From Candidatus Omnitrophota bacterium (GTDB taxonomy: Bacteria; Omnitrophota; Gorgyraeia; Gygaellales; Profunditerraquicolaceae): DNA of 64,000 bases. The stretch spans positions 194,524-258,523 of the forward strand of contig JBAZJY010000003.1 in NCBI GenBank assembly GCA_041651115.1, in the 5' to 3' direction. A model generated the notes under the pieces. The model was not told where the DNA came from. It made no database searches and was given only the letters and a program-made list of their open reading frames with translations. The translations under genes and the position numbers were made by a program. Numbering within the stretch: the stretch's first letter is position 1; every line of letters begins with the position of its first letter. Below are positions 3,001 through 38,101 of the stretch, piece after piece.

Positions 3001-6000
3001 CTTATTGTAACCGGACTCTGATATACCCCAGGGAATATTATTTTTGGCCGCATAACGGATCTGGCCGCTAACCGCTGCTTTATATGTCTGGTCCAGCACG
3101 CTTCCTTCGTAGTTCGGCATTACCAAAAGGGGCATGAGATATTCAAACATCGACCCGCCCCAAGAAACCAAAACAGGGTCTCCTTCTACTTTTGCGATCA
3201 TCCGGCCAAGCTTAAACCAATGATCCTGCGGCATTCTTCCTTGAGCAATCGCGACAAAACTGCAAAACCTGGCTTCGGACGCCAGAAGGTCATAACAACC
3301 GGGGTCCACCTTGTGTTCGCTGACATTGTATCCGATAGAAAGAAGGTCCGTACTCTTGTCATACAAAAATTCATATTCAACGCTGGAGATTTCGTTGCAC
3401 CGTAACACGATATAATCGATCGCTTTGATCCTTTCGGCGGACCGTGTCCCGGCTTCTTTGATTGCATCGCGAAGTTTCAATAACCATCCATGCAATCCTC
3501 TCGACTCATCGTCCACAAGAGATATATCCGTCATAATTTTCTCAATCAAAGGAACCAGCATCTGCTCCAGCCTTGCCACTTCCCCAAGCGTAGGGATCTC
3601 ATCTAAATTCCGTAGAGCCTCCCGAAGTTGAACAAGTCGCGCCTGCTGTTCATTATCGCCTGCGTCCCACATCCCCGGCATTTCCGGCGCAAGCAATATC
3701 CAAGGCGCAATATAAGACATGTCTTCCAAAAAGTCGTAACACTGCCGCTCCAAGGCGCGCGCCCAAATTCTGCCTTGCTCATAATGCTTATGATCCGACC
3801 CGGAAAAAACTTTTGAAACATCCTTTGAAAGCTGGCGCAAAAATGCGTAGATCTCCGAAAGACAAACGGAAGTAATTTTCCTTTTTTCCTGAAATTGCGC
3901 GATCCTTTCAGAAATTTCTCGAAAGAACCCGGCGACACTGCTCTTTTGGCTTCTCTCAATCTCCGCGACGCTCTGATGCAGGATCTGCAGGGTATCTTCC
4001 AGCCCGTCGAATATCTTAACAGAAACGATCTTCTGAGAATTCATTTCCGCCAGCCCGGAGCGCAAGATCATTAAATGGCCGGTCAAGTTTCCGCTATCTA
4101 CCGATGAAACATAAAGAGGCTCCAAAGGTTTAAGCGTCTCTGTATCATACCAGTTGTAAAAATTACCCCGATACCTTTGCATAAGATTTAAGGTATCGAA
4201 TGTTTTTTCCGTCCTGTTAAACATCATCCCCATCGAAACATAACCAAAATCGTAGGCTGTCAAATTAGCAAGAAGCGACAGGCCGATATTCGTTGGTGAA
4301 GTCCTATGGGCCAATGCGCTGACAGGCTCCTCCTGAAAATTGTCTAGCGGCAGCCAATGATCCTTTTCGGTAACAAAATTCTCAAAGAACGCCCAGTTCT
4401 TCCGGGCAAAACTCCTGAGAAAAATAATTTGCTCTTTGGAAAGCATGATCTTGCGGGCAGGAGAAGACCGGCTGATCCAATAAGCTACTGCGGGAGAAAC
4501 AAACCACAGGCTTAATAGAACCAGGGCAAGCGCGTCGAAGCGCGGGAAAAATACCGTAAAACAGATTAACAGCAAAACAGCGGTAATCGGTTCAAACAAG
4601 ATATTCTTGTAACAGCTTAGAATATTATTCGGCAAAAAAGCTTCCGCTTCGAAGAAAGTCGTCCATTTCAGCAAATTTCTTCGCGATACAAACATCCTCC
4701 ACAAAGTCCGCGTGATCGCATCCAGACAATAGAAAAATTCATGCAGTAAAAAAACAAGCGAAAAGAAAAACCGGAGTGCGTTCCTTTTAAATAATGACAC
4801 TACCAATCTAAAATGGGTTATAAAAGTAAGGGTTTTGGGTTTTCTCACGGCCTCCGACAGGGACATCGGCACAAGGGGGAAACCGAGAAGAGCAATGACG
4901 AGAGCCGACCACATCCAGGAGGGTTGAAAAAATATCCATCCTGATAAAAGCAGCAAAACTATTGCTAAAGGAACTACGCTGCGCCTTAAGTTATCCGCGA
5001 TCTTCCACTGCGACAAGAAAGAAATCGGGTTTTTTGCTTTTGCGCCGCCGAGGACGCGAACGGAACTGAATAACCAGGGAATGATCTGCCAATCCCCGCA
5101 GATCCAACGGTATCTCCGGCTCAAATCCTTAAGATATCCTGACGGGTATTTTTCGTAAAATTGGACATCCGTCACAAGCCCTGACCGGGCATAACAACCT
5201 TCTAAAAGATCATGGCTCAATATAGAATTTTCCGGAAAACGGCCATCCATGGATCTTTCGAACGCATCCACATCATAAAGCCCCTTCCCGACAAAAGACC
5301 CTTCAAGGAAAAGATCCTGGTAAACATCAGACACCGCTTTGGTATAAGGATCGATTCCTATATCGCCTCCGAAAATTTTCACGAATAGCGAAGGATTTTC
5401 CCCGGGATAGCCGGATTCGACTCTGGGCTGGAGAATCCCGTACCCGGAAACAACCCGTTGTTTTTTTTCGTCATAGACCGGCCGGTTCAAGGGATGCTCT
5501 ATCACGCCCACGAGTTCTCGCGCGGCGTTGCGCGACATCCAGGTATCCGCATCCAAAGTAATGACATATTTAACGTCCTGAAGCCTCTGGGGATCACCGA
5601 TGATCGCGCTGAAACGCCCTTCGCCTTTTCCGCGAAGAAATGCGTTTAAATCCCCTATCTTGCCACGCTTACGTTCGTACCCCATCCATACCTTTTCATT
5701 TTTATTCCACTTGCGGGGCCTATGAAAAAAATAAAAAACGTACTCTTTTTGCCTACGGTATTTATAATTCAACTGCTCGATACCTTCCATAACCTGAGCC
5801 AGAAGCGCTTGATCCTCAGGCATCTTTTCCTGCGCTGCATCAGAAAAATCCGTTAAAAGCGCAAAATCCGTATTGGCGTCAATATTCGCAAGATAACGGA
5901 CCTCTAACCCTTCGAGAAGTGATTCAACCGTCCGCGCATCGCTAATTATACAAGGGACTACGACCAGTGTATGCGCATAAGCAGGAATTCCTTCTGAAAA

Positions 6001-13191: not shown

Positions 13192-13269
13192 TGGTCGGGG
13201 CGACAGGACTTGAACCTGTGACCTCTTGCTCCCAAAGCAAGCGCTCTAGCCAAACTGAGCCACGCCCCG
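13192..13269 (-). tRNA. tRNA-Pro (anticodon TGG) with the bacterial C1-G72 pair and encoded CCA
   Basis: Acceptor CGGGGCG/CGCCCCG, anticodon stem CTTGC/GCAAG with loop TTTGGGA, T-loop TTCAAGT. Confidence 0.85.
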
Positions 13270-13316
13270 CTAGTCTTAACTACAAGTGGCGAAATCCTCG
13301 CGCTTTATGCGGGGAT

Positions 13317-13333
13317 GAGCCACGCCCCGCTAT
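13317..13333. repeat. 17-bp direct repeat of the tRNA-Pro 5' end (copy of 13256-13272)
   Basis: tgagccacgccccgcta occurs twice, 61 bp apart. Confidence 0.75.
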
Positions 13334-20115: not shown

Positions 20116-20150
20116 ACCACCAAATTTTTGCTTGTCGCAAAAATTTGGTG
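20116..20150 (-). terminator. Perfect 15-bp-stem hairpin (ccaccaaatttttgc ttgtc gcaaaaatttggtgg) overlapping and following the tmRNA 3' end; a probable terminator
   Basis: Inverted repeat seen directly in the sequence; a second GC hairpin (gcgcggc ttgtc gccgcgc) at 20086-20104 shares the same loop. Confidence 0.5.
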
Positions 20151-20550
20151 GAGGTGGCGGCATTGAAGCCGCGTCCCTAAGTAGACAAGTAAAAGCCGCT
20201 ACATGCTTAGCCCCGCATTTTTACCTTGCGTTTGCAACTCCTGCGGGGCAGGATTTACAAACCGCAGCCCTTAGAGCTCCTCGCCCCGGCAACAAAGGCC
20301 AATTTGCCGAGGCCAGCCTGCTAAGTGCTCTATTTCATCCCACAGGCAGGACGAATAGAGGCTTCACGCTTAATTAAGCGCGAAGGCTGGTATGAACGCT
20401 GGTCTCGCGGTTAAAGGCGAAACCATTGTTCCCGCTAAACGGTTGCTTGTGTTTGCGTTTATATTGTGCAAGGATTGTTAACGCGGCCTACCCTGCGTCC
20501 GCGGCATGCTGCTCTTACCCGACTATCTTAAGTCGAGCCCTTTCACCCCC
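20146..20550 (-). ncRNA. ssrA: tmRNA (ssrA) immediately downstream of smpB
   Basis: 5' end GGGGGUGAAAGGGCUCGAC...GCAUGCCGCGG (PK1-like). 3' end GGACGCGGCUUCAAUGCCGCCACCUCCACCA, close to the E. coli tmRNA terminus. The acceptor pairs GGGGGUG/CACCUCC, including a G3.U70 wobble. The resume region AUAAACGCAAACACA resembles E. coli AUAGUCGCAAACGAC; the candidate tag reading frame is ANTSNRLAGTMVSPLTARPAFIPAFALN*, which is uncertain. Confidence 0.8.
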
Positions 20551-21047: not shown

Positions 21048-22000
21048 TTTACCACGTTAAGCGCAAAAAACAAACTTAAAAAAAACGGTAGGCTGATTAT
21101 GCCGACGATATGCGTAAACAAAACGCCTTGGTTGATCAAAAGATCCTCTTTTTTATAATGCCGGATGATCAACGACAAGTTTGTTGCCGAAGGCACTGCC
21201 AATTCCATCACGATCAGCAGCCCGATCAATTCCGGCAGCTTGAGTATAAGCACAAGGGCCAAGCCTAAAGCCGGCAAGATGATCATTTTTACCAGGACAG
21301 CCAGGAACATGGCTTTTTTGACAACCTTCCTTAAGGATATCTGGGCAAGGCTTCCGCCTACTACGATCATTGACAGCGGAATAGTGCAATTGCCCACTGC
21401 CTTTAAAGGCGCGATCACAAAATCCGGGATAAATTTGTTTAAACCTAAAAAGACCACTAGCAGGCTGAATAACGTCGCGATCACCGGCGGGCTAAACAGG
21501 CTTCCCAATTCAAATTTCTTAGTCCTGTCAAACGACAGCAGGTGCACTCCAAACGACCAGATCACCAGGTTAAAACCCAGGAGGAATAAAAATAAATAAA
21601 TAAACATTGGTTCGGCTTTATCCGCAGGTAATATGCCGGCGATCAGCGCCAGCGGCAAATAACCTGAATTCTGAAAAGCAGTCAGGCCGAGAAACTGCTT
21701 TTTATGTTCCTCTCCCTGGATGAATCTGATGAATAACGACCCGATGGCATATCCAACCAGCGTAATCGCGATGCTCAATAACGGAAAAATCCACCAGTCG
21801 GCATATTGCGCAAAGCTGAAATCCTTGATCAGCTGGCAAAAGATCAAGACCGGCAGTGTCAACTCTACGGTCATCCGGCTGATTGTGCCTATGCCTTCGT
21901 AATCTAAAACGCGCCTTTTCACCAGAAAATAGCCGATCCCCGCCATCAGGATTACCTGGATCACCGCGCTGACCGTGGTCATAACAGATTCTAAAAACAT
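21044..22000 (-). CDS. AEC (auxin efflux carrier-like) family permease
   Basis: 318 aa; about 10 TM helices with a family-typical profile. Confidence 0.6.
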   Translation of the reverse strand: MFLESVMTTVSAVIQVILMAGIGYFLVKRRVLDYEGIGTISRMTVELTLPVLIFCQLIKDFSFAQYADWWIFPLLSIAITLVGYAIGSLFIRFIQGEEHKKQFLGLTAFQNSGYLPLALIAGILPADKAEPMFIYLFLFLLGFNLVIWSFGVHLLSFDRTKKFELGSLFSPPVIATLFSLLVVFLGLNKFIPDFVIAPLKAVGNCTIPLSMIVVGGSLAQISLRKVVKKAMFLAVLVKMIILPALGLALVLILKLPELIGLLIVMELAVPSATNLSLIIRHYKKEDLLINQGVLFTHIVGIISLPFFLSLFFALNVVK

Positions 22001-22112
22001 AATTTACCTCTTATTTAGACGATTCGCAGGGCTATATTATAACAGCAAAATAATACAGCAGCAATTCTTTATTTGACAGAATCAGGCGAGTAGAATATAC
22101 TTGAGGGTATTG

Positions 22113-22195
22113 CGGAGATGGCGGAATGGCAGACGCGCTGGTCTCAGAAGCCAGTGTCGCAAGACATGAGGGTTCAACTCCCTCTCTCCGCACCA
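22113..22195 (+). tRNA. tRNA-Leu (anticodon CAG), class II with a long variable arm and encoded CCA
   Basis: Acceptor GCGGAGA/TCTCCGC, anticodon stem CTGGT/GCCAG with loop CTCAGAA, variable arm TGTCGCAAGACAT, T-loop TTCAACT. Confidence 0.8.
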
Positions 22196-23769
22196 AACTT
22201 AGAGAGAGGGACTCTCTCCGCACCAAACTTAGAGAGAGGGACTCTCTCCGCACCAAACTTAGAGAGAGGGACTCTTACAAAGTAACCGGAATCTTCATCC
22301 CCATCAAGAACAGCATCAGGATAGCGCCTATTAAAAGACCCCATCATCTCACTGCGGATCCCCGGGTCAATAATTATGCTGCTAAAACCCCTGCTTTGCC
22401 CGGCTGCAATAACCCTTAATACCTCCGGCACTCCCAAGAGGCATTCACCAAAATAATAAGCAACATGAATTATCCTTGAGCCGTCCGGCATTAAAAATGC
22501 GCTGGTTTTAGCCAGGGGAGCGATAGATTCAAGATTAATAGGCTCATCGATCCTCTTTACTGCCCCTGCAGTGAAGATAAAAAAGGCCTTCCCTGCATTT
22601 ATATAACTCCTGAACAAATATATCTTATCTTTCCCGCGCTCAATGCCGATAAGCTGCGAGGGATCATGTTTCTTAAAAACAGGCCATGTTTTTTTAAGTA
22701 AATAAGGATAATAAATGATCCCGGAGAGAAGCCGCGGGCCGTCGTCAGTCCAGTGCCAGTATTTCCCAAAAAAGAACTGCGTCCCTAATATTATAATGAG
22801 CAGGACCCGCAAGGCATTACGAAAAAACAGTGCACGTAATTCAGACAACGCTAACCAACCCTCAACCGCCAACCAGGCAATAAAAGGATACAAATATAAC
22901 CAGTATTTAGGCGTAGTAAAAGCGCGCATATAGAATACGCACAAGGGCAAAACGCCTATGCCAAACAGAAGGACCGTAAGCCATCTGCGGCGAGCAATGA
23001 CCCTTGACAGGCCGATAACGGCAGATAAAATTATCGCTACCGGCAGGGCAGATAATAAATTTATGAGAGCGGCGTTAAGCGGCAAAGAGAAAATTGCGTA
23101 ATGTTGGCGCGCCTGATGCATAATTAAGGATATATCCAAACGAAAGGTTTTCATGAAATATATCCACACAACCGCCATGACGATCACAGAAAAAATAACG
23201 TCTTTCAAGCGCCCCTTCTTGCAATAAGCTGCCGATAGAAAACAGGGAAAAATCCAGATCGCGTCGACCCGGGCATAAAAAGCAAGAACCATGGCAATGC
23301 CGGATGCAGGGCAAATAATATTGGGATTATCGGGTAACGAGAGAATATAAAAAGCCAGGCATAAAAAGAAAAATGCCAGAATGGAAGAATTAGGATAGGC
23401 GGCGGAGATGATGATCTCCGGGATAAGCAGGCAGGCAGTAATGAAACACCGGGCAAATTTCCTTGAGGTTAATCGCTTAGCTCCGAAGTATAGTAAAAAG
23501 AGAGAAACTACCAGACATAAAACAGAAACGGTATTTGCTAAAGCAGGCAGAAAATTTAACGGTAATCCCGGCAGCAAATGATAAATGCCTTTGAATAAAT
23601 TTTCATATAACGGCTGGATATTTTCCCTGTATAGCGAGATGCCCTCCATTTTCTTTATTAAGCCGGCTATCCCGGCAAGGACGAATCCGTCATCGCCTTC
23701 AAAAAATGGCGTAATCGTAGAATACAGCCAGTAAGATACGTATGAAAGCAGCGCGAGGAATATGAACAT
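22174..23769 (-). CDS. Polytopic membrane protein, GT-C-like (PMT/ArnT-like glycosyltransferase fold). Its C-terminus runs through the tRNA-Leu-derived tandem repeats, so the true stop may lie upstream.
   Basis: 531 aa; more than 10 TM helices; C-terminal RVPLSKFGAE x3 encoded on the opposite strand of tRNA-Leu and its repeats. Confidence 0.45.
   Translation of the reverse strand: MFIFLALLSYVSYWLYSTITPFFEGDDGFVLAGIAGLIKKMEGISLYRENIQPLYENLFKGIYHLLPGLPLNFLPALANTVSVLCLVVSLFLLYFGAKRLTSRKFARCFITACLLIPEIIISAAYPNSSILAFFFLCLAFYILSLPDNPNIICPASGIAMVLAFYARVDAIWIFPCFLSAAYCKKGRLKDVIFSVIVMAVVWIYFMKTFRLDISLIMHQARQHYAIFSLPLNAALINLLSALPVAIILSAVIGLSRVIARRRWLTVLLFGIGVLPLCVFYMRAFTTPKYWLYLYPFIAWLAVEGWLALSELRALFFRNALRVLLIIILGTQFFFGKYWHWTDDGPRLLSGIIYYPYLLKKTWPVFKKHDPSQLIGIERGKDKIYLFRSYINAGKAFFIFTAGAVKRIDEPINLESIAPLAKTSAFLMPDGSRIIHVAYYFGECLLGVPEVLRVIAAGQSRGFSSIIIDPGIRSEMMGSFNRRYPDAVLDGDEDSGYFVRVPLSKFGAERVPLSKFGAERVPLSKFGAERGS
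22181..22270. repeat. Three tandem copies of a 30-bp unit (ctctctccgcaccaaacttagagagaggga) that begins with the tRNA-Leu 3' end; each unit is a hairpin (ccctctct/agagaggg)
   Basis: Exact tandem copies at 22181, 22211 and 22241; they encode the RVPLSKFGAE x3 C-terminal repeats of the minus-strand ORF. Confidence 0.85.
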
Positions 23770-35182: not shown

Positions 35183-36158
35183 AGCGCTGAATGAACGGGC
35201 TTACAAGCTGTTTGGAGAACTTGCTTGGTATAAAACACTAAGAAAGTTTTATTACTGCGGTATTAGATCCTGCGTTAAACGACGGAACAGCTCTTTTATT
35301 TTTTTAAACGGCCGTCAGCTGTCTGAAAAAAAACAGCGGCTCATGGAACATAACAAAATATGGAAAAAGGAACTGACACACCTCGCAATATATAAGCTTA
35401 AGAACAACGCTAGGGAAACCGTGGTAGTTAACCTTAAGGGGTCCGATTCATTCAAATTGGATGATGTTTTGTTTTGTGAATTGTTTGCATCCCGTGATCT
35501 TAAAATAGACTACAGTTTTTTTAAAGACGAGCTTCTTAGATGCATATATCCTGCCGAAAGCAGAGAGTATAGATATTACAAATACTGCGAAAGCCTTTTG
35601 AACTTTTATTTGAATAATTACGCTGCCAAAAAAGATGATTGCTCTACCGCGCAATTTTCCCTGGATATGTATAAATATGCGATCAATCATATCCGGGGCA
35701 ATTCGGTCTTAGACGCGGGCAGTTGCGCGGCAATTTTCCCAATATTGCTAAAACTAAAAATGCCCGCTAACGAAGTAACAGCCAGCGATTGCAATTGCGG
35801 ATACTTTGATGATTTCGCAGTGCAATATTGTAAGCAAAACGGCATAAACATTAAATTCAAGAAATTAGACATCCTATCCCCTTCCACGGAGGAGAGCTAC
35901 GATACCGTGACCAGCATCCACACCCTGGAACATTTTGAAGAAAAGGATACTGCCGCGGTGATCAACAACCTGCTTAAGATAACGAATAAAAGACTGATCA
36001 TGATCTTTCCCTTTGAAGATTTTATCACCATAAAAGACCACCGTCAGAAACTAAACCATAAAAAGATCAATATGATAATCAAGAACTTGCGCTTTCCCGC
36101 CAAAATAGAAAAAGTAAGCGCGCGGAATTACGCTTTGGCAATAGACACTGATAGATGA
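35124..36158 (+). CDS. Class I SAM-dependent methyltransferase-like protein (start possibly at 35163)
   Basis: VLDAGSCAA and TVTSIHTLEHFEE motifs. Confidence 0.45.
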   Translation: MSAKEKPCRKWIIMVRRLLKALNERAYKLFGELAWYKTLRKFYYCGIRSCVKRRNSSFIFLNGRQLSEKKQRLMEHNKIWKKELTHLAIYKLKNNARETVVVNLKGSDSFKLDDVLFCELFASRDLKIDYSFFKDELLRCIYPAESREYRYYKYCESLLNFYLNNYAAKKDDCSTAQFSLDMYKYAINHIRGNSVLDAGSCAAIFPILLKLKMPANEVTASDCNCGYFDDFAVQYCKQNGINIKFKKLDILSPSTEESYDTVTSIHTLEHFEEKDTAAVINNLLKITNKRLIMIFPFEDFITIKDHRQKLNHKKINMIIKNLRFPAKIEKVSARNYALAIDTDR

Positions 36159-38101
36159 AAACAAACCCAGATACATACCGCGCAGATATATCCGTTGTCA
36201 TTCCTACCTGCAATAGGCCGGTAGGCTTGCGCCGGCTGCTGGATAGCCTGTCTAAACAAACTATCCGGGTCAAAGAAATAATCGTTGTTGATAACGGAGA
36301 GCAGGGCAAAATCACTCCCCTCATTTCAAGCTTTTCCGGATCGCTAAACATAAGATATTTTTTTGAGCCATCTAAAGGCATCTCTATTGTCCGCAACAAA
36401 GGCATATCTGTTTCAACCTGCCCTATCATAGCCTTTCTGGATGATGATTGCGTTGCCCAGCCGCAGTGGCTGGAAGCCATAGACCGGGCATTTCAAGAAA
36501 ACCGGGATATTCAGATTTTGCAAGGCAATACAACCCAAACATCAACGACAAAAAACTTATATGTTGATATTTTTCAGGCTGACTACAAAGAATATATCCG
36601 AAATATGCTCTCTAAGACACCCGGATACGTAAGCATACTTAATACGCAAAATTTTGCCGTAAAACGGGAGCTAATCACGAGGTTCCGCATGCCTTTTGAA
36701 GAAAGGCTCGCTACAAACGAAGACCTTGAGCTATATTGGAAGCTCAATAAAATGGGTATCAGGGTCGCGTATTCAGAAGAAATGAAGGCAGACCATTACG
36801 CCTGCAATCGTTTTCTGCCTTTTCTGCGCGTGTGGTATAGATACGGCTTTGGTAAATCCCAAATTAAACGGCTGCATCCGGATTTTTCAGATGAATATTA
36901 TATCGACAATACCGCTTCTATATTTTCCTGCCTGCGTATGCTGTATCGCGAAATATTCCGGCCGCGGCACAAGATGGCCAATGCCATTATGTATTACCCT
37001 GTCTTAATCGCGCAAAAATCGTTCTTTATCGCCGGCATGTACATGGGAAGGAAAATGCCTGTCCCGGCATATAAGCGGCCCGCTACGCCTCCGGAAATGG
37101 TGCTGTTCGTGACAAATGAATGTAACCTCTCCTGTCGCCACTGTTTTTATCAATCCGCGCTTGCGCAAGACAAGCGGGAAATAAAAGCTTCCGATACAAT
37201 AAAGATCTTACGATCATTAACCCGTGACTTGGAAACAGTTTGCCTTGGCGGAGGCGAACCGTTCATTAATAAAGAGCTGGCTGAAATATGCAAGGCCTTT
37301 GCGCAAAATATTTATTTAAAAGACCTGTATATCGTAAGCAACGGCTTTGAAACCAACCGGATAATTGAAACAACCGAAGATATGCTCAAAAATTCGTTCT
37401 TTAACATACACCTGCGCATCTCCCTTGACGGCATGGCAGATAGCCACAACCGCATCAGGGGTAATGAACTGGCTTTTTCAAACGCAGTTGCCACGATCAA
37501 GGCGCTAAAGGACCTGCAGCGCAGATACGAGAAATTACAGCCAAGTATACAAACGATAATCAGCCAATTAAATATCGGGGAATTGACCCAATTGGCGCAA
37601 TTTGTCAAAAAAGAAATTGGAGTAATGCATGTATTTGATATCATCCGGGGCGCTACCATGTTTTACAAAAATGGCCTCTTTATAAACGAATCCTATGGTC
37701 CGCCAGATACAAGCCAACTGCTTACGCATAAACAGCTAAAATATGCCGCAAAGACAGTAAAAAAGTTCTACCGGGAATACGCCCAAGACAATACCATGAA
37801 ACCGGATGAAGCAAAATATCAGGAAACTCTCTTCAGCATAAGCAGTTACCAGGCGCTGAAAAGAAAACCGATAGTCAGGTGTTCAGCCGGAAAATCCATC
37901 GCGGTGATTTTTCCCAATTACGATGTTTCTCTTTGCGAGGCAGCCCGGCCAATTGGGAACCTTGCGGACCATAGCTTTGACTTTACGAAAATACAAACTA
38001 AGTTTTCCACGCCAGAAATAAAAAACCTAAGGGATTGCTGTTATTGCACCAATCCCTGCTATATTTCTTCAAGTATCCAAAACATGCGCGGGAGAAGATA
38101 A
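36155..38101 (+). CDS. Fusion protein with an N-terminal GT2 glycosyltransferase and a C-terminal radical SAM/SPASM domain
   Basis: N-terminus has ISVVIPTCNRP...FLDDDC; the middle has FVTNECNLSCRHC (CxxxCxxC); the C-terminus has cysteines at CSAGKS, CEAA and CCYCTNPCY. Confidence 0.7.
   Translation: MKTNPDTYRADISVVIPTCNRPVGLRRLLDSLSKQTIRVKEIIVVDNGEQGKITPLISSFSGSLNIRYFFEPSKGISIVRNKGISVSTCPIIAFLDDDCVAQPQWLEAIDRAFQENRDIQILQGNTTQTSTTKNLYVDIFQADYKEYIRNMLSKTPGYVSILNTQNFAVKRELITRFRMPFEERLATNEDLELYWKLNKMGIRVAYSEEMKADHYACNRFLPFLRVWYRYGFGKSQIKRLHPDFSDEYYIDNTASIFSCLRMLYREIFRPRHKMANAIMYYPVLIAQKSFFIAGMYMGRKMPVPAYKRPATPPEMVLFVTNECNLSCRHCFYQSALAQDKREIKASDTIKILRSLTRDLETVCLGGGEPFINKELAEICKAFAQNIYLKDLYIVSNGFETNRIIETTEDMLKNSFFNIHLRISLDGMADSHNRIRGNELAFSNAVATIKALKDLQRRYEKLQPSIQTIISQLNIGELTQLAQFVKKEIGVMHVFDIIRGATMFYKNGLFINESYGPPDTSQLLTHKQLKYAAKTVKKFYREYAQDNTMKPDEAKYQETLFSISSYQALKRKPIVRCSAGKSIAVIFPNYDVSLCEAARPIGNLADHSFDFTKIQTKFSTPEIKNLRDCCYCTNPCYISSSIQNMRGRR

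Follow-up and report, generated by a model that had tools for sequence, protein, structure and literature searches.

A 30-bp tandem triplication at the 3′ end of an Omnitrophota tRNA-Leu(CAG) gene that probably arose by replication slippage

A 64,000-nucleotide stretch of a Candidatus Omnitrophota bacterium genome (assembly GCA_041651115.1, contig JBAZJY010000003.1, positions 194,524 to 258,523 of the forward strand; hereafter the window, in whose coordinates all positions are given) carries a tRNA-Leu(CAG) gene whose 3′ end runs directly into three identical 30-bp repeats, and on the opposite strand the same repeats form the end of a gene for a 531-residue membrane protein. Is this array a regulatory or otherwise functional RNA element, the trace of an insertion into the tRNA gene, a genuine part of the protein, or simply a repeat? 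Here we conclude that the array is real but is an ordinary young repeat, and that it is probably a neutral tandem triplication of the minisatellite or variable-number tandem repeat (VNTR) type, formed when replication slipped at the 3′ end of the tRNA gene.

The tandem array and how it may have formed

A tandem repeat at this tRNA end had been reported in an earlier note made from the sequence alone, and it is confirmed by Tandem Repeats Finder (TRF) and by exact-match counts. The array (22182-22275) has a period of 30 and 3.13 copies with 100% matches and 0% indels, and its TRF score of 188 compares with 46 for the next-best tandem repeat, making it the sole sizeable one in the window. There are exactly three occurrences of the 30-mer, where 0.00 would be expected (none in 100 shuffles), and neither half of it was found elsewhere in the window when up to 2 mismatches were allowed. 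The unit, which had been divided into 16 nt of tRNA and 14 nt of following sequence, in fact consists of the last 14 nt of the tRNA, CTCTCTCCGCACCA (22182-22195), and a 16-nt trailer, AACTTAGAGAGAGGGA; the two bases that precede it are cc in the tRNA versus ga at copies 2 and 3. The array closes with CTCT, a partial fourth copy, after which unrelated sequence follows (tacaaagtaacc...). CTCT bounds the inferred single unit at both ends (22182-22185 and 22272-22275), and the flanks beyond it differ (cc versus ga upstream, ctcc versus taca downstream). The tRNA itself is unaltered by the array, and its true start lies at 22112 rather than at 22113, as first given (Table 1).

It is formally possible that the assembler mis-estimated the copy number. 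This is a metagenome-assembled genome (MAG), and the two assemblies in which the DNA is present are probably not independent: contig k141_2792708 of ENA assembly ERZ27247363 also has three copies, but its identity to the window is 100% across 13.6 kb and it therefore does not represent an independent population. Against an artefact, the three copies are found in both contigs (157 kb and 357 kb), the flanks of the array are unique, and the array, at 94 bp, would fit within an ordinary short read and stays below the k of 141 that is implied by the ENA contig name. We regard an assembly error as very improbable.

Removal of two units leaves ...tcc, CTCTctccgcaccaaacttagagagaggga, CTCTtacaaagt, a 30-bp segment with 4-nt direct repeats at its bounds and a 10-bp inverted repeat. 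A segment bounded by direct repeats and containing an inverted repeat is the classical substrate of slipped-strand duplication. In the proposed ancestor the tRNA would have continued as ...tcc, CTCTctccgcacca aacttagagagaggga, CTCTtacaaagt..., with GAGAGAGGGA in the trailer as a perfect inverted copy of TCCCTCTCTC, the arm that is made up of the tRNA T-stem and the 3′ strand of the acceptor. A nascent strand stalled at this hairpin and ending in ...GGGACTCT could then re-pair with the CTCT 30 nt upstream, giving a 30-bp duplication, and the 30-bp homology between the two copies would permit a second slip that yields three. The complete identity of the copies points to a recent event. The slipped-strand expansion proposed in the earlier note is the most economical reading of the identical copies, the CTCT at both ends and the 10-bp inverted repeat, and although we infer the mechanism rather than observe it, the constant period, the identical head-to-tail copies and the microhomology bounding the single-copy segment are those of a VNTR. 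None of this evidence requires the array to have a function.

The setting of the gene may be of relevance. The promoter of tRNA-Leu(CAG) matches 11 of 12 consensus positions, its TTGACAG and TATACTT are unchanged in three relatives at the syntenic loci (L045, L046 and L047), and it is directed towards the 3′ end of a long operon on the minus strand. Since tRNA-Leu(CAG) is the only one of the 9 RNA genes in the window to lie on the plus strand, and since GC skew is below zero over the entire window, the transcription of this gene from its strong promoter probably runs head-on to replication. In its section on head-on conflict, a review (PMC7451550) counts indels among the major mutational signatures of conflicts between replication and transcription, and such a conflict may have contributed to the expansion.

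The overlapping membrane protein

The open reading frame (ORF) on the minus strand, which is identical to NCBI protein WC532_07495, reads through the array in frame, as the earlier note had it: RVPLSKFGAE is encoded three times (codons spanning 22186-22275) and is followed by RGS. The protein ends ...GYFVRVPLSKFGAERVPLSKFGAERVPLSKFGAERGS (also given as ...DSGYFVRVPLSKFGAERVPLSKFGAERVPLSKFGAERGS), and its TGA stop (22174-22176), the complement of tca, sits in the tRNA T-loop. A single-unit version of the ORF would end ...GYFVRVPLSKFGAERGS* and would still overlap the tRNA by 22 nt, so that 20 residues have been added rather than a stop codon destroyed; because 30 is a multiple of three and no stop is met before the T-loop, these 20 extra residues are the sole coding effect of the array. 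The suggestion that the repeats corrupt the true C-terminus of the protein therefore holds as far as the added residues are concerned, but the tail was already non-conserved and the single-unit ORF ends inside the tRNA anyway. The last ~28 residues of the protein are derived from the repeat and from antisense tRNA, and are not part of the enzyme.

The description of the protein as GT-C-like is borne out at the level of the predicted fold. A confident AlphaFold model built on 11 homologues (mean predicted local distance difference test (pLDDT) score 79.2, predicted template-modelling (pTM) score 0.82) has a multi-helix N-terminal membrane module and a C-terminal soluble domain, and its Foldseek matches in the PDB are to ArnT (5f15, the best, with E 1.9e-6 and a template-modelling (TM) score of 0.52), AftB, PglB, ALG12 and STT3. 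Searches of Pfam, NCBIfam and PDB sequences returned no match and placed the protein in no curated sequence family. In the model the final structured strand is GYFVRV (residues 495-500), and residues 505-531, with pLDDT below 50, are predicted to be disordered. The sole close homologue, P0002 (36% identity), ends ...GYFLKIGLQAG, five residues past the aligned GYFLKI, and four homologues stop 0-8 residues beyond the aligned last strand. In a search of 1.84 billion representative proteins none of the 65 homologues could be aligned beyond residue 502 of the query, and the tail is not, then, a conserved protein feature.

That the decapeptide repeat is nevertheless a selected feature of the glycosyltransferase might be argued from its reading frame and from a period that is a multiple of three. 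However, the tail is absent from all homologues and is predicted to be disordered, and the nucleotide copies, being identical, are too young to have been shaped by selection at the protein level; we consider this reading extremely improbable. The only matches to the tail, P0140 and P0180, are unrelated proteins with QAVPYSRYGR repeats and were discarded.

The gene lies at the end of a glycan-synthesis cluster with GT2 enzymes, radical SAM proteins and an ABC-2 exporter. The cluster, of ~19 kb and abutting the tRNA, also contains a 648-residue protein (36155-38101, plus strand) in which an N-terminal GT2 glycosyltransferase domain is fused to a radical SAM / 4Fe-4S domain, together with two more stand-alone radical SAM proteins.

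Functional RNA and insertion as alternative readings

The earlier note described every unit as a ccctctct...agagaggg hairpin and considered that the units might form a terminator array or an insulator. The hairpin is present in full in unit 1, where a perfect 10-bp stem (22179-22188 with 22202-22211) uses the tRNA's own 3′ part, but units 2 and 3 have stems of only 7 bp. In an alternative pairing each GAGAGAG joins the next CTCTCTC over a GGA loop and CGCACCA is left free, and a single unit folds in this way (GAGAGAG-gga-CUCUCUC, -9.1 kcal/mol, CGCACCA single-stranded). The plus strand including the tRNA folds with a z-score of -2.65, the array alone on this strand with -1.2, no better than shuffles, and the minus strand over 22100-22300 (array and antisense tRNA) with -0.4; the reconstructed single-copy sequence, with its 10-bp hairpin, gives -16.9 kcal/mol and a z-score of -3.5. 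No terminator-like site was found within 600 bp of the array on either strand, and on neither strand is any array hairpin followed by a U-tract, the next bases being CGCACCA, ACUCUU or AAGUUUGG. With these results and the z-scores of the array on its two strands, the terminator or insulator proposal is not upheld. At Rfam gathering thresholds the tRNA alone is detected, and at E up to 1 the region 22000-22400 gives the tRNA and two chance-level matches, none of RtT type. A Rho-utilisation site was considered and rejected: the unit has 9 C and 7 G and is half paired, and so is not convincingly C-rich and unstructured.

The 3′ end of this tRNA is found, with extra copies, at other loci as well. 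We surveyed 129 tRNAs in 47 stretches for downstream copies of their 3′ ends; 40 genome stretches share the 25-nt 3′ end of tRNA-Leu(CAG), and four of these have extra downstream copies, namely the Omnitrophota MAGs L021, L028 and L033 and a genome labelled Planctomycetia, L006. The copies are all at tRNA-Leu(GAG), with a hemW-type radical SAM gene upstream in L006, L021 and L033. L021 has a 68-nt direct repeat (82% identical, 130-nt spacing) that begins at the same nucleotide as the repeat of the window, and its copy is preceded by gACTTAGAGAGAGcgtaagaGGG, a 12-nt match to the window's aACTTAGAGAGAGGGA (shared ACTTAGAGAGAG...GGG). L006, L028 and L033 share a conserved element of ~140 nt that starts with GGGATTTGAAGC, the complement of T-loop and T-stem, and has at its other end 16-22 nt copied from the tRNA 3′ end, CCA included; in L033 a third copy further on brings the extra copies to two. 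On L006, L028 and L033, which are its own three source sequences, a covariance model of the element (R1) scores 133-154 bits, and on L021 it scores 16 bits (E 0.07); its sole independent match is a 28-bit partial one at L033 3092-3176. The model has no match in the window, and the array was accordingly rejected as an example of the element. The ~140-nt element is apparently structured, with compensatory changes at 8 of 37 predicted pairs among only three sequences, and has no match in Rfam; its absence from L049 and L050, close relatives of L033, indicates that it is sporadic. The copies at the four loci may have arisen by separate slippage events at a slip-prone (CT)n run, may be left over from small insertions that duplicated their target, or may belong to a functional RNA, and their recurrence suggests that tRNA-Leu 3′ ends are hot spots of rearrangement in Omnitrophota.

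Two further features were observed at tRNA-Leu loci. An sRNA-like (small RNA-like) unit of ~80 nt, GGGRATGCGAAG ... CCCCTACTTCCCCCGTTCTTCGYATCCC followed by a T-run, lies in roughly 1 kb of non-coding DNA after tRNA-Leu(GAG) in L008, L009, L015, L022, L024, L028, L049 (about 3993-4075) and L050 (about 4236-4318), sometimes twice per locus; a -10-like TATACT (gatatactt) stands before it in L049 and L050, and no Rfam match at gathering score was obtained for the scanned loci L008-L028. In L003, L021 (twice) and L028, ...CCGCACCA is followed by a conserved trailer hairpin that starts within the CCA end and has the form CCATCC-tac-stem-loop-stem-taY-GGATGG, in which the inner stem varies yet remains paired (GCCTG/CAGGC in L021, GCTCTG/CAGAGC in L003).

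As a functional RNA, the array would supply trailer hairpins with tRNA-like ...CGCACCA tails that act as a terminator or insulator, or that are processed into a mimic of the tRNA 3′ end akin to RtT/RttR. In favour of this are the strong tRNA promoter, which points towards the 3′ end of the operon on the minus strand without any recognisable terminator intervening, the fold of the unit with its single-stranded CGCACCA, and an arm-loop-copy layout shared with L021, the ~140-nt element and the tyrT repeat of E. coli, within which RttR is annotated. On the other hand, the hairpins lack U-tracts, the fold z-scores of the array are unremarkable, neither Rfam nor the covariance model recognises it, 100% identical copies give no readable covariation, and the array is conserved in no relative. 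A functional RNA is in our view improbable. The same holds for the more general proposition that the array is a small representative of a class of tRNA-trailer elements not described before, each with a complementary arm, a loop and then the copied tRNA 3′ end with its final CCA; we regard it as doubtful. If it were true, the copies would give trailer RNAs a tRNA-like 3′ end for the processing machinery or serve as decoys of the tRNA-Leu acceptor end, and function or a dedicated mechanism of insertion, rather than chance slippage, would account for their repeated appearance at tRNA-Leu genes.

Integrase-mediated insertion of genomic islands generates direct repeats of tRNA 3′ ends (attL/attR; e.g. 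Williams 2002 NAR). The first duplicate at our locus might similarly be the scar or miniature derivative of a site-specific insertion, which slippage merely amplified, and the history of the locus lends this some weight. Syntenic loci were recovered through the neighbouring AEC transporter. In the two closest relatives, L044 and L045, whose transporters are 75% identical, the promoter and tRNA are retained, but the contigs break at the tRNA, that of L044 at the promoter and that of L045 inside the T-stem. In more distant relatives (about 65% identity) the 3′ side of the tRNA is a synteny breakpoint, with the glycan cluster in the window, pilin-like genes in L047 and GH42 in L046; L047 has an unrelated trailer without a repeat, and in no relative is the array conserved. 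In L046 the tRNA is reduced to a truncated 5′ fragment that is joined to the ORF of a LAGLIDADG homing endonuclease, directly after which stands another tRNA-Leu(CAG), complete and different from the first, and it looks as if a cassette of endonuclease and replacement tRNA overwrote the resident gene. The locus is evidently prone to rearrangement. To this can be added the downstream copies in L021, L028, L033 and L006, the ACTTAGAGAGAG..GGG shared by L021 and the window, and the sporadic occurrence of the ~140-nt element. However, no integrase is present among the on-record Pfam calls for genes at ~22-30 kb, in a scan of 30-41.5 kb, which shows the glycan-synthesis cluster, or in L021; the copies are only 16 nt apart with no kb-scale element between them; the array ends in the 4-nt CTCT and not in a full core; and the 14-mer does not recur distally in the following 42 kb. 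The pattern GAGAGAG-N(0-16)-CTCTCTCCGCACCA has 0 matches in 241 M metagenome records and IMG/VR, no attP was found, and among viral sequences the tRNA 3′ end is matched only by a tRNA-Leu gene of a phage. Judged from these records, the arm-plus-core pattern is not a widespread element, and we think an origin by insertion unlikely.

Some details of the relatives deserve mention in their own right. The ends of the L044 and L045 contigs at the tRNA hint at repeats or strain heterogeneity just beyond, in those populations too. In L046 (JGI 3300031952 Ga0315294_10000056; 3137-3897, minus strand) only the first 23 nt of the tRNA remain behind the conserved promoter, and the D-loop ATGGCAGAC forms the start of the 218-residue LAGLIDADG ORF (Pfam PF14528, 24.1 bits).

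Slippage followed by neutral persistence thus remains the reading that we favour, and several points weigh against it. Copy-number polymorphism is the defining behaviour of VNTRs, but an exact scan of JGI metagenomes for the unit gave 0 matches and therefore no copy-number variants for comparison, nor could such a comparison be made through the 531-residue protein, whose cluster has a single member. The neutrality of the array is an assumption. Finally, the 12-nt match between L021 and the window is not fully explained by independent slippage alone, and it is mainly on account of this match that we continue to allow a small probability for insertion and for a functional RNA. No sign of selection or function was seen: the array comes without a terminator signature, an integrase, a known RNA family or a second occurrence in JGI metagenomes.

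A second partial tRNA duplicate in this genome, in this case of a 5′ end, was noted at tRNA-Pro(TGG): a copy of the first 14 nt of this tRNA (CGGGGCGTGGCTCA) lies 60 nt upstream of the gene (13256-13269 and 13316-13329, minus strand; 2 exact matches versus 0.01 expected). The tmRNA (20146-20550, minus strand) has a predicted tag peptide that is long, at 28 residues (ANTSNRLAGTMVSPLTARPAFIPAFALN), and the tags of relatives are of similar length (29-31 residues).

Table 1. Coordinates of the features discussed, in the window unless a locus is named.
Feature	Position	Strand	Basis
Sigma-70-type promoter of tRNA-Leu(CAG)	22073..22101	+	TTGACA 22073-22078, 17-nt spacer, TATACT 22096-22101
tRNA-Leu(CAG), intact, encoded CCA	22112..22195	+	ARAGORN; Rfam RF00005 58.3 bits
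ORF of 531-residue membrane protein, predicted GT-C fold	22174..23769	-	ORF listing; AlphaFold; Foldseek
10-bp inverted repeat, TCCCTCTCTC (22179-22188) with GAGAGAGGGA (22202-22211), 13-nt loop	22179..22211		Sequence
Repeat unit 1, CTCTCTCCGCACCA + AACTTAGAGAGAGGGA	22182..22211		TRF, exact-match count
Repeat unit 2, identical to unit 1	22212..22241		TRF, exact-match count
Repeat unit 3, identical to unit 1	22242..22271		TRF, exact-match count
CTCT, partial fourth unit, microhomology shared with 22182-22185	22272..22275		Sequence; TRF array end 22275
~140-nt element	L006 1640-1777	+	
~140-nt element	L028 337-478	+	
~140-nt element	L033 3553-3694	-	
~140-nt element, partial	L033 3092-3176	-	

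Significance and comparison with known systems

A young slippage repeat matters mainly for annotation, in that it corrects the C-terminus of the 531-residue protein, and the array may in addition be of use as a marker of strains in this Omnitrophota population. It would be of wider importance only if the copies were functional mimics of tRNA ends or products of a dedicated insertion.

Like att repeats, the array lies at a synteny breakpoint and places an additional copy of the tRNA 3′ end behind a tRNA that is itself intact, but it differs from them in several respects: an integrase is lacking, the copies are separated by only 16 nt, and there are three of them in tandem, with a truncated one at the end. 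With the L021, L028, L033 and L006 loci it has in common the same copied tRNA 3′ sequence (14-22 nt) after a complementary arm. The copies at those loci, however, are single and diverged and lie at the hemW locus, 117-300 nt beyond tRNA-Leu(GAG), and in L006, L028 and L033 the copy ends the ~140-nt element, whereas that of the window is a perfect 30-bp triplet at tRNA-Leu(CAG), at another locus.

The closest parallel is the tyrT-tyrV locus of E. coli, whose distal repeats, RtT/RttR RNA and tpr gene were reportedly described by Egan and Landy in 1978, by Rossi et al. in 1981 and by Bosl and Kersten in 1991. In the E. coli genome (NC_000913) a 178-bp unit is present in 3.14 copies of 95% identity that overlap the last 19 nt of tRNA-Tyr, and the sRNA RttR (171 nt) and the peptide gene tpr are annotated inside the repeat. 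In both organisms a tandem array of about 3.1 copies directly abuts a tRNA gene, the units start with the 3′-terminal nucleotides of the tRNA including CCA (19 nt in E. coli, 14 nt in the window), and each unit contains a segment complementary to the tRNA (GGGGAAGGAT with ATCCTTCCCC in E. coli, GAGAGAG with CTCTCTC in the window). After E. coli tyrT, the array is a second clear case of a tRNA 3′ end that has been tandemly duplicated together with its trailer. The differences are no less marked. The unit of the window, at 30 bp versus 178 bp, is too short for an sRNA or peptide of its own, its copies are 100% rather than 95% identical, it has neither sequence similarity to the E. coli repeat nor an RtT-type Rfam match, and it overlaps the 3′ end of a convergent protein gene.

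The perfect head-to-tail copies, the short unit, the microhomology at the junctions and the hairpin-prone sequence are instead those of bacterial minisatellites and VNTRs, as is the in-frame effect on a surface-polysaccharide enzyme, although the unit departs from the usual VNTR in that it includes part of a tRNA gene. The array is thus a tandem duplication, of the VNTR type, of a tRNA 3′ end and its trailer, and not a member of the RtT family.

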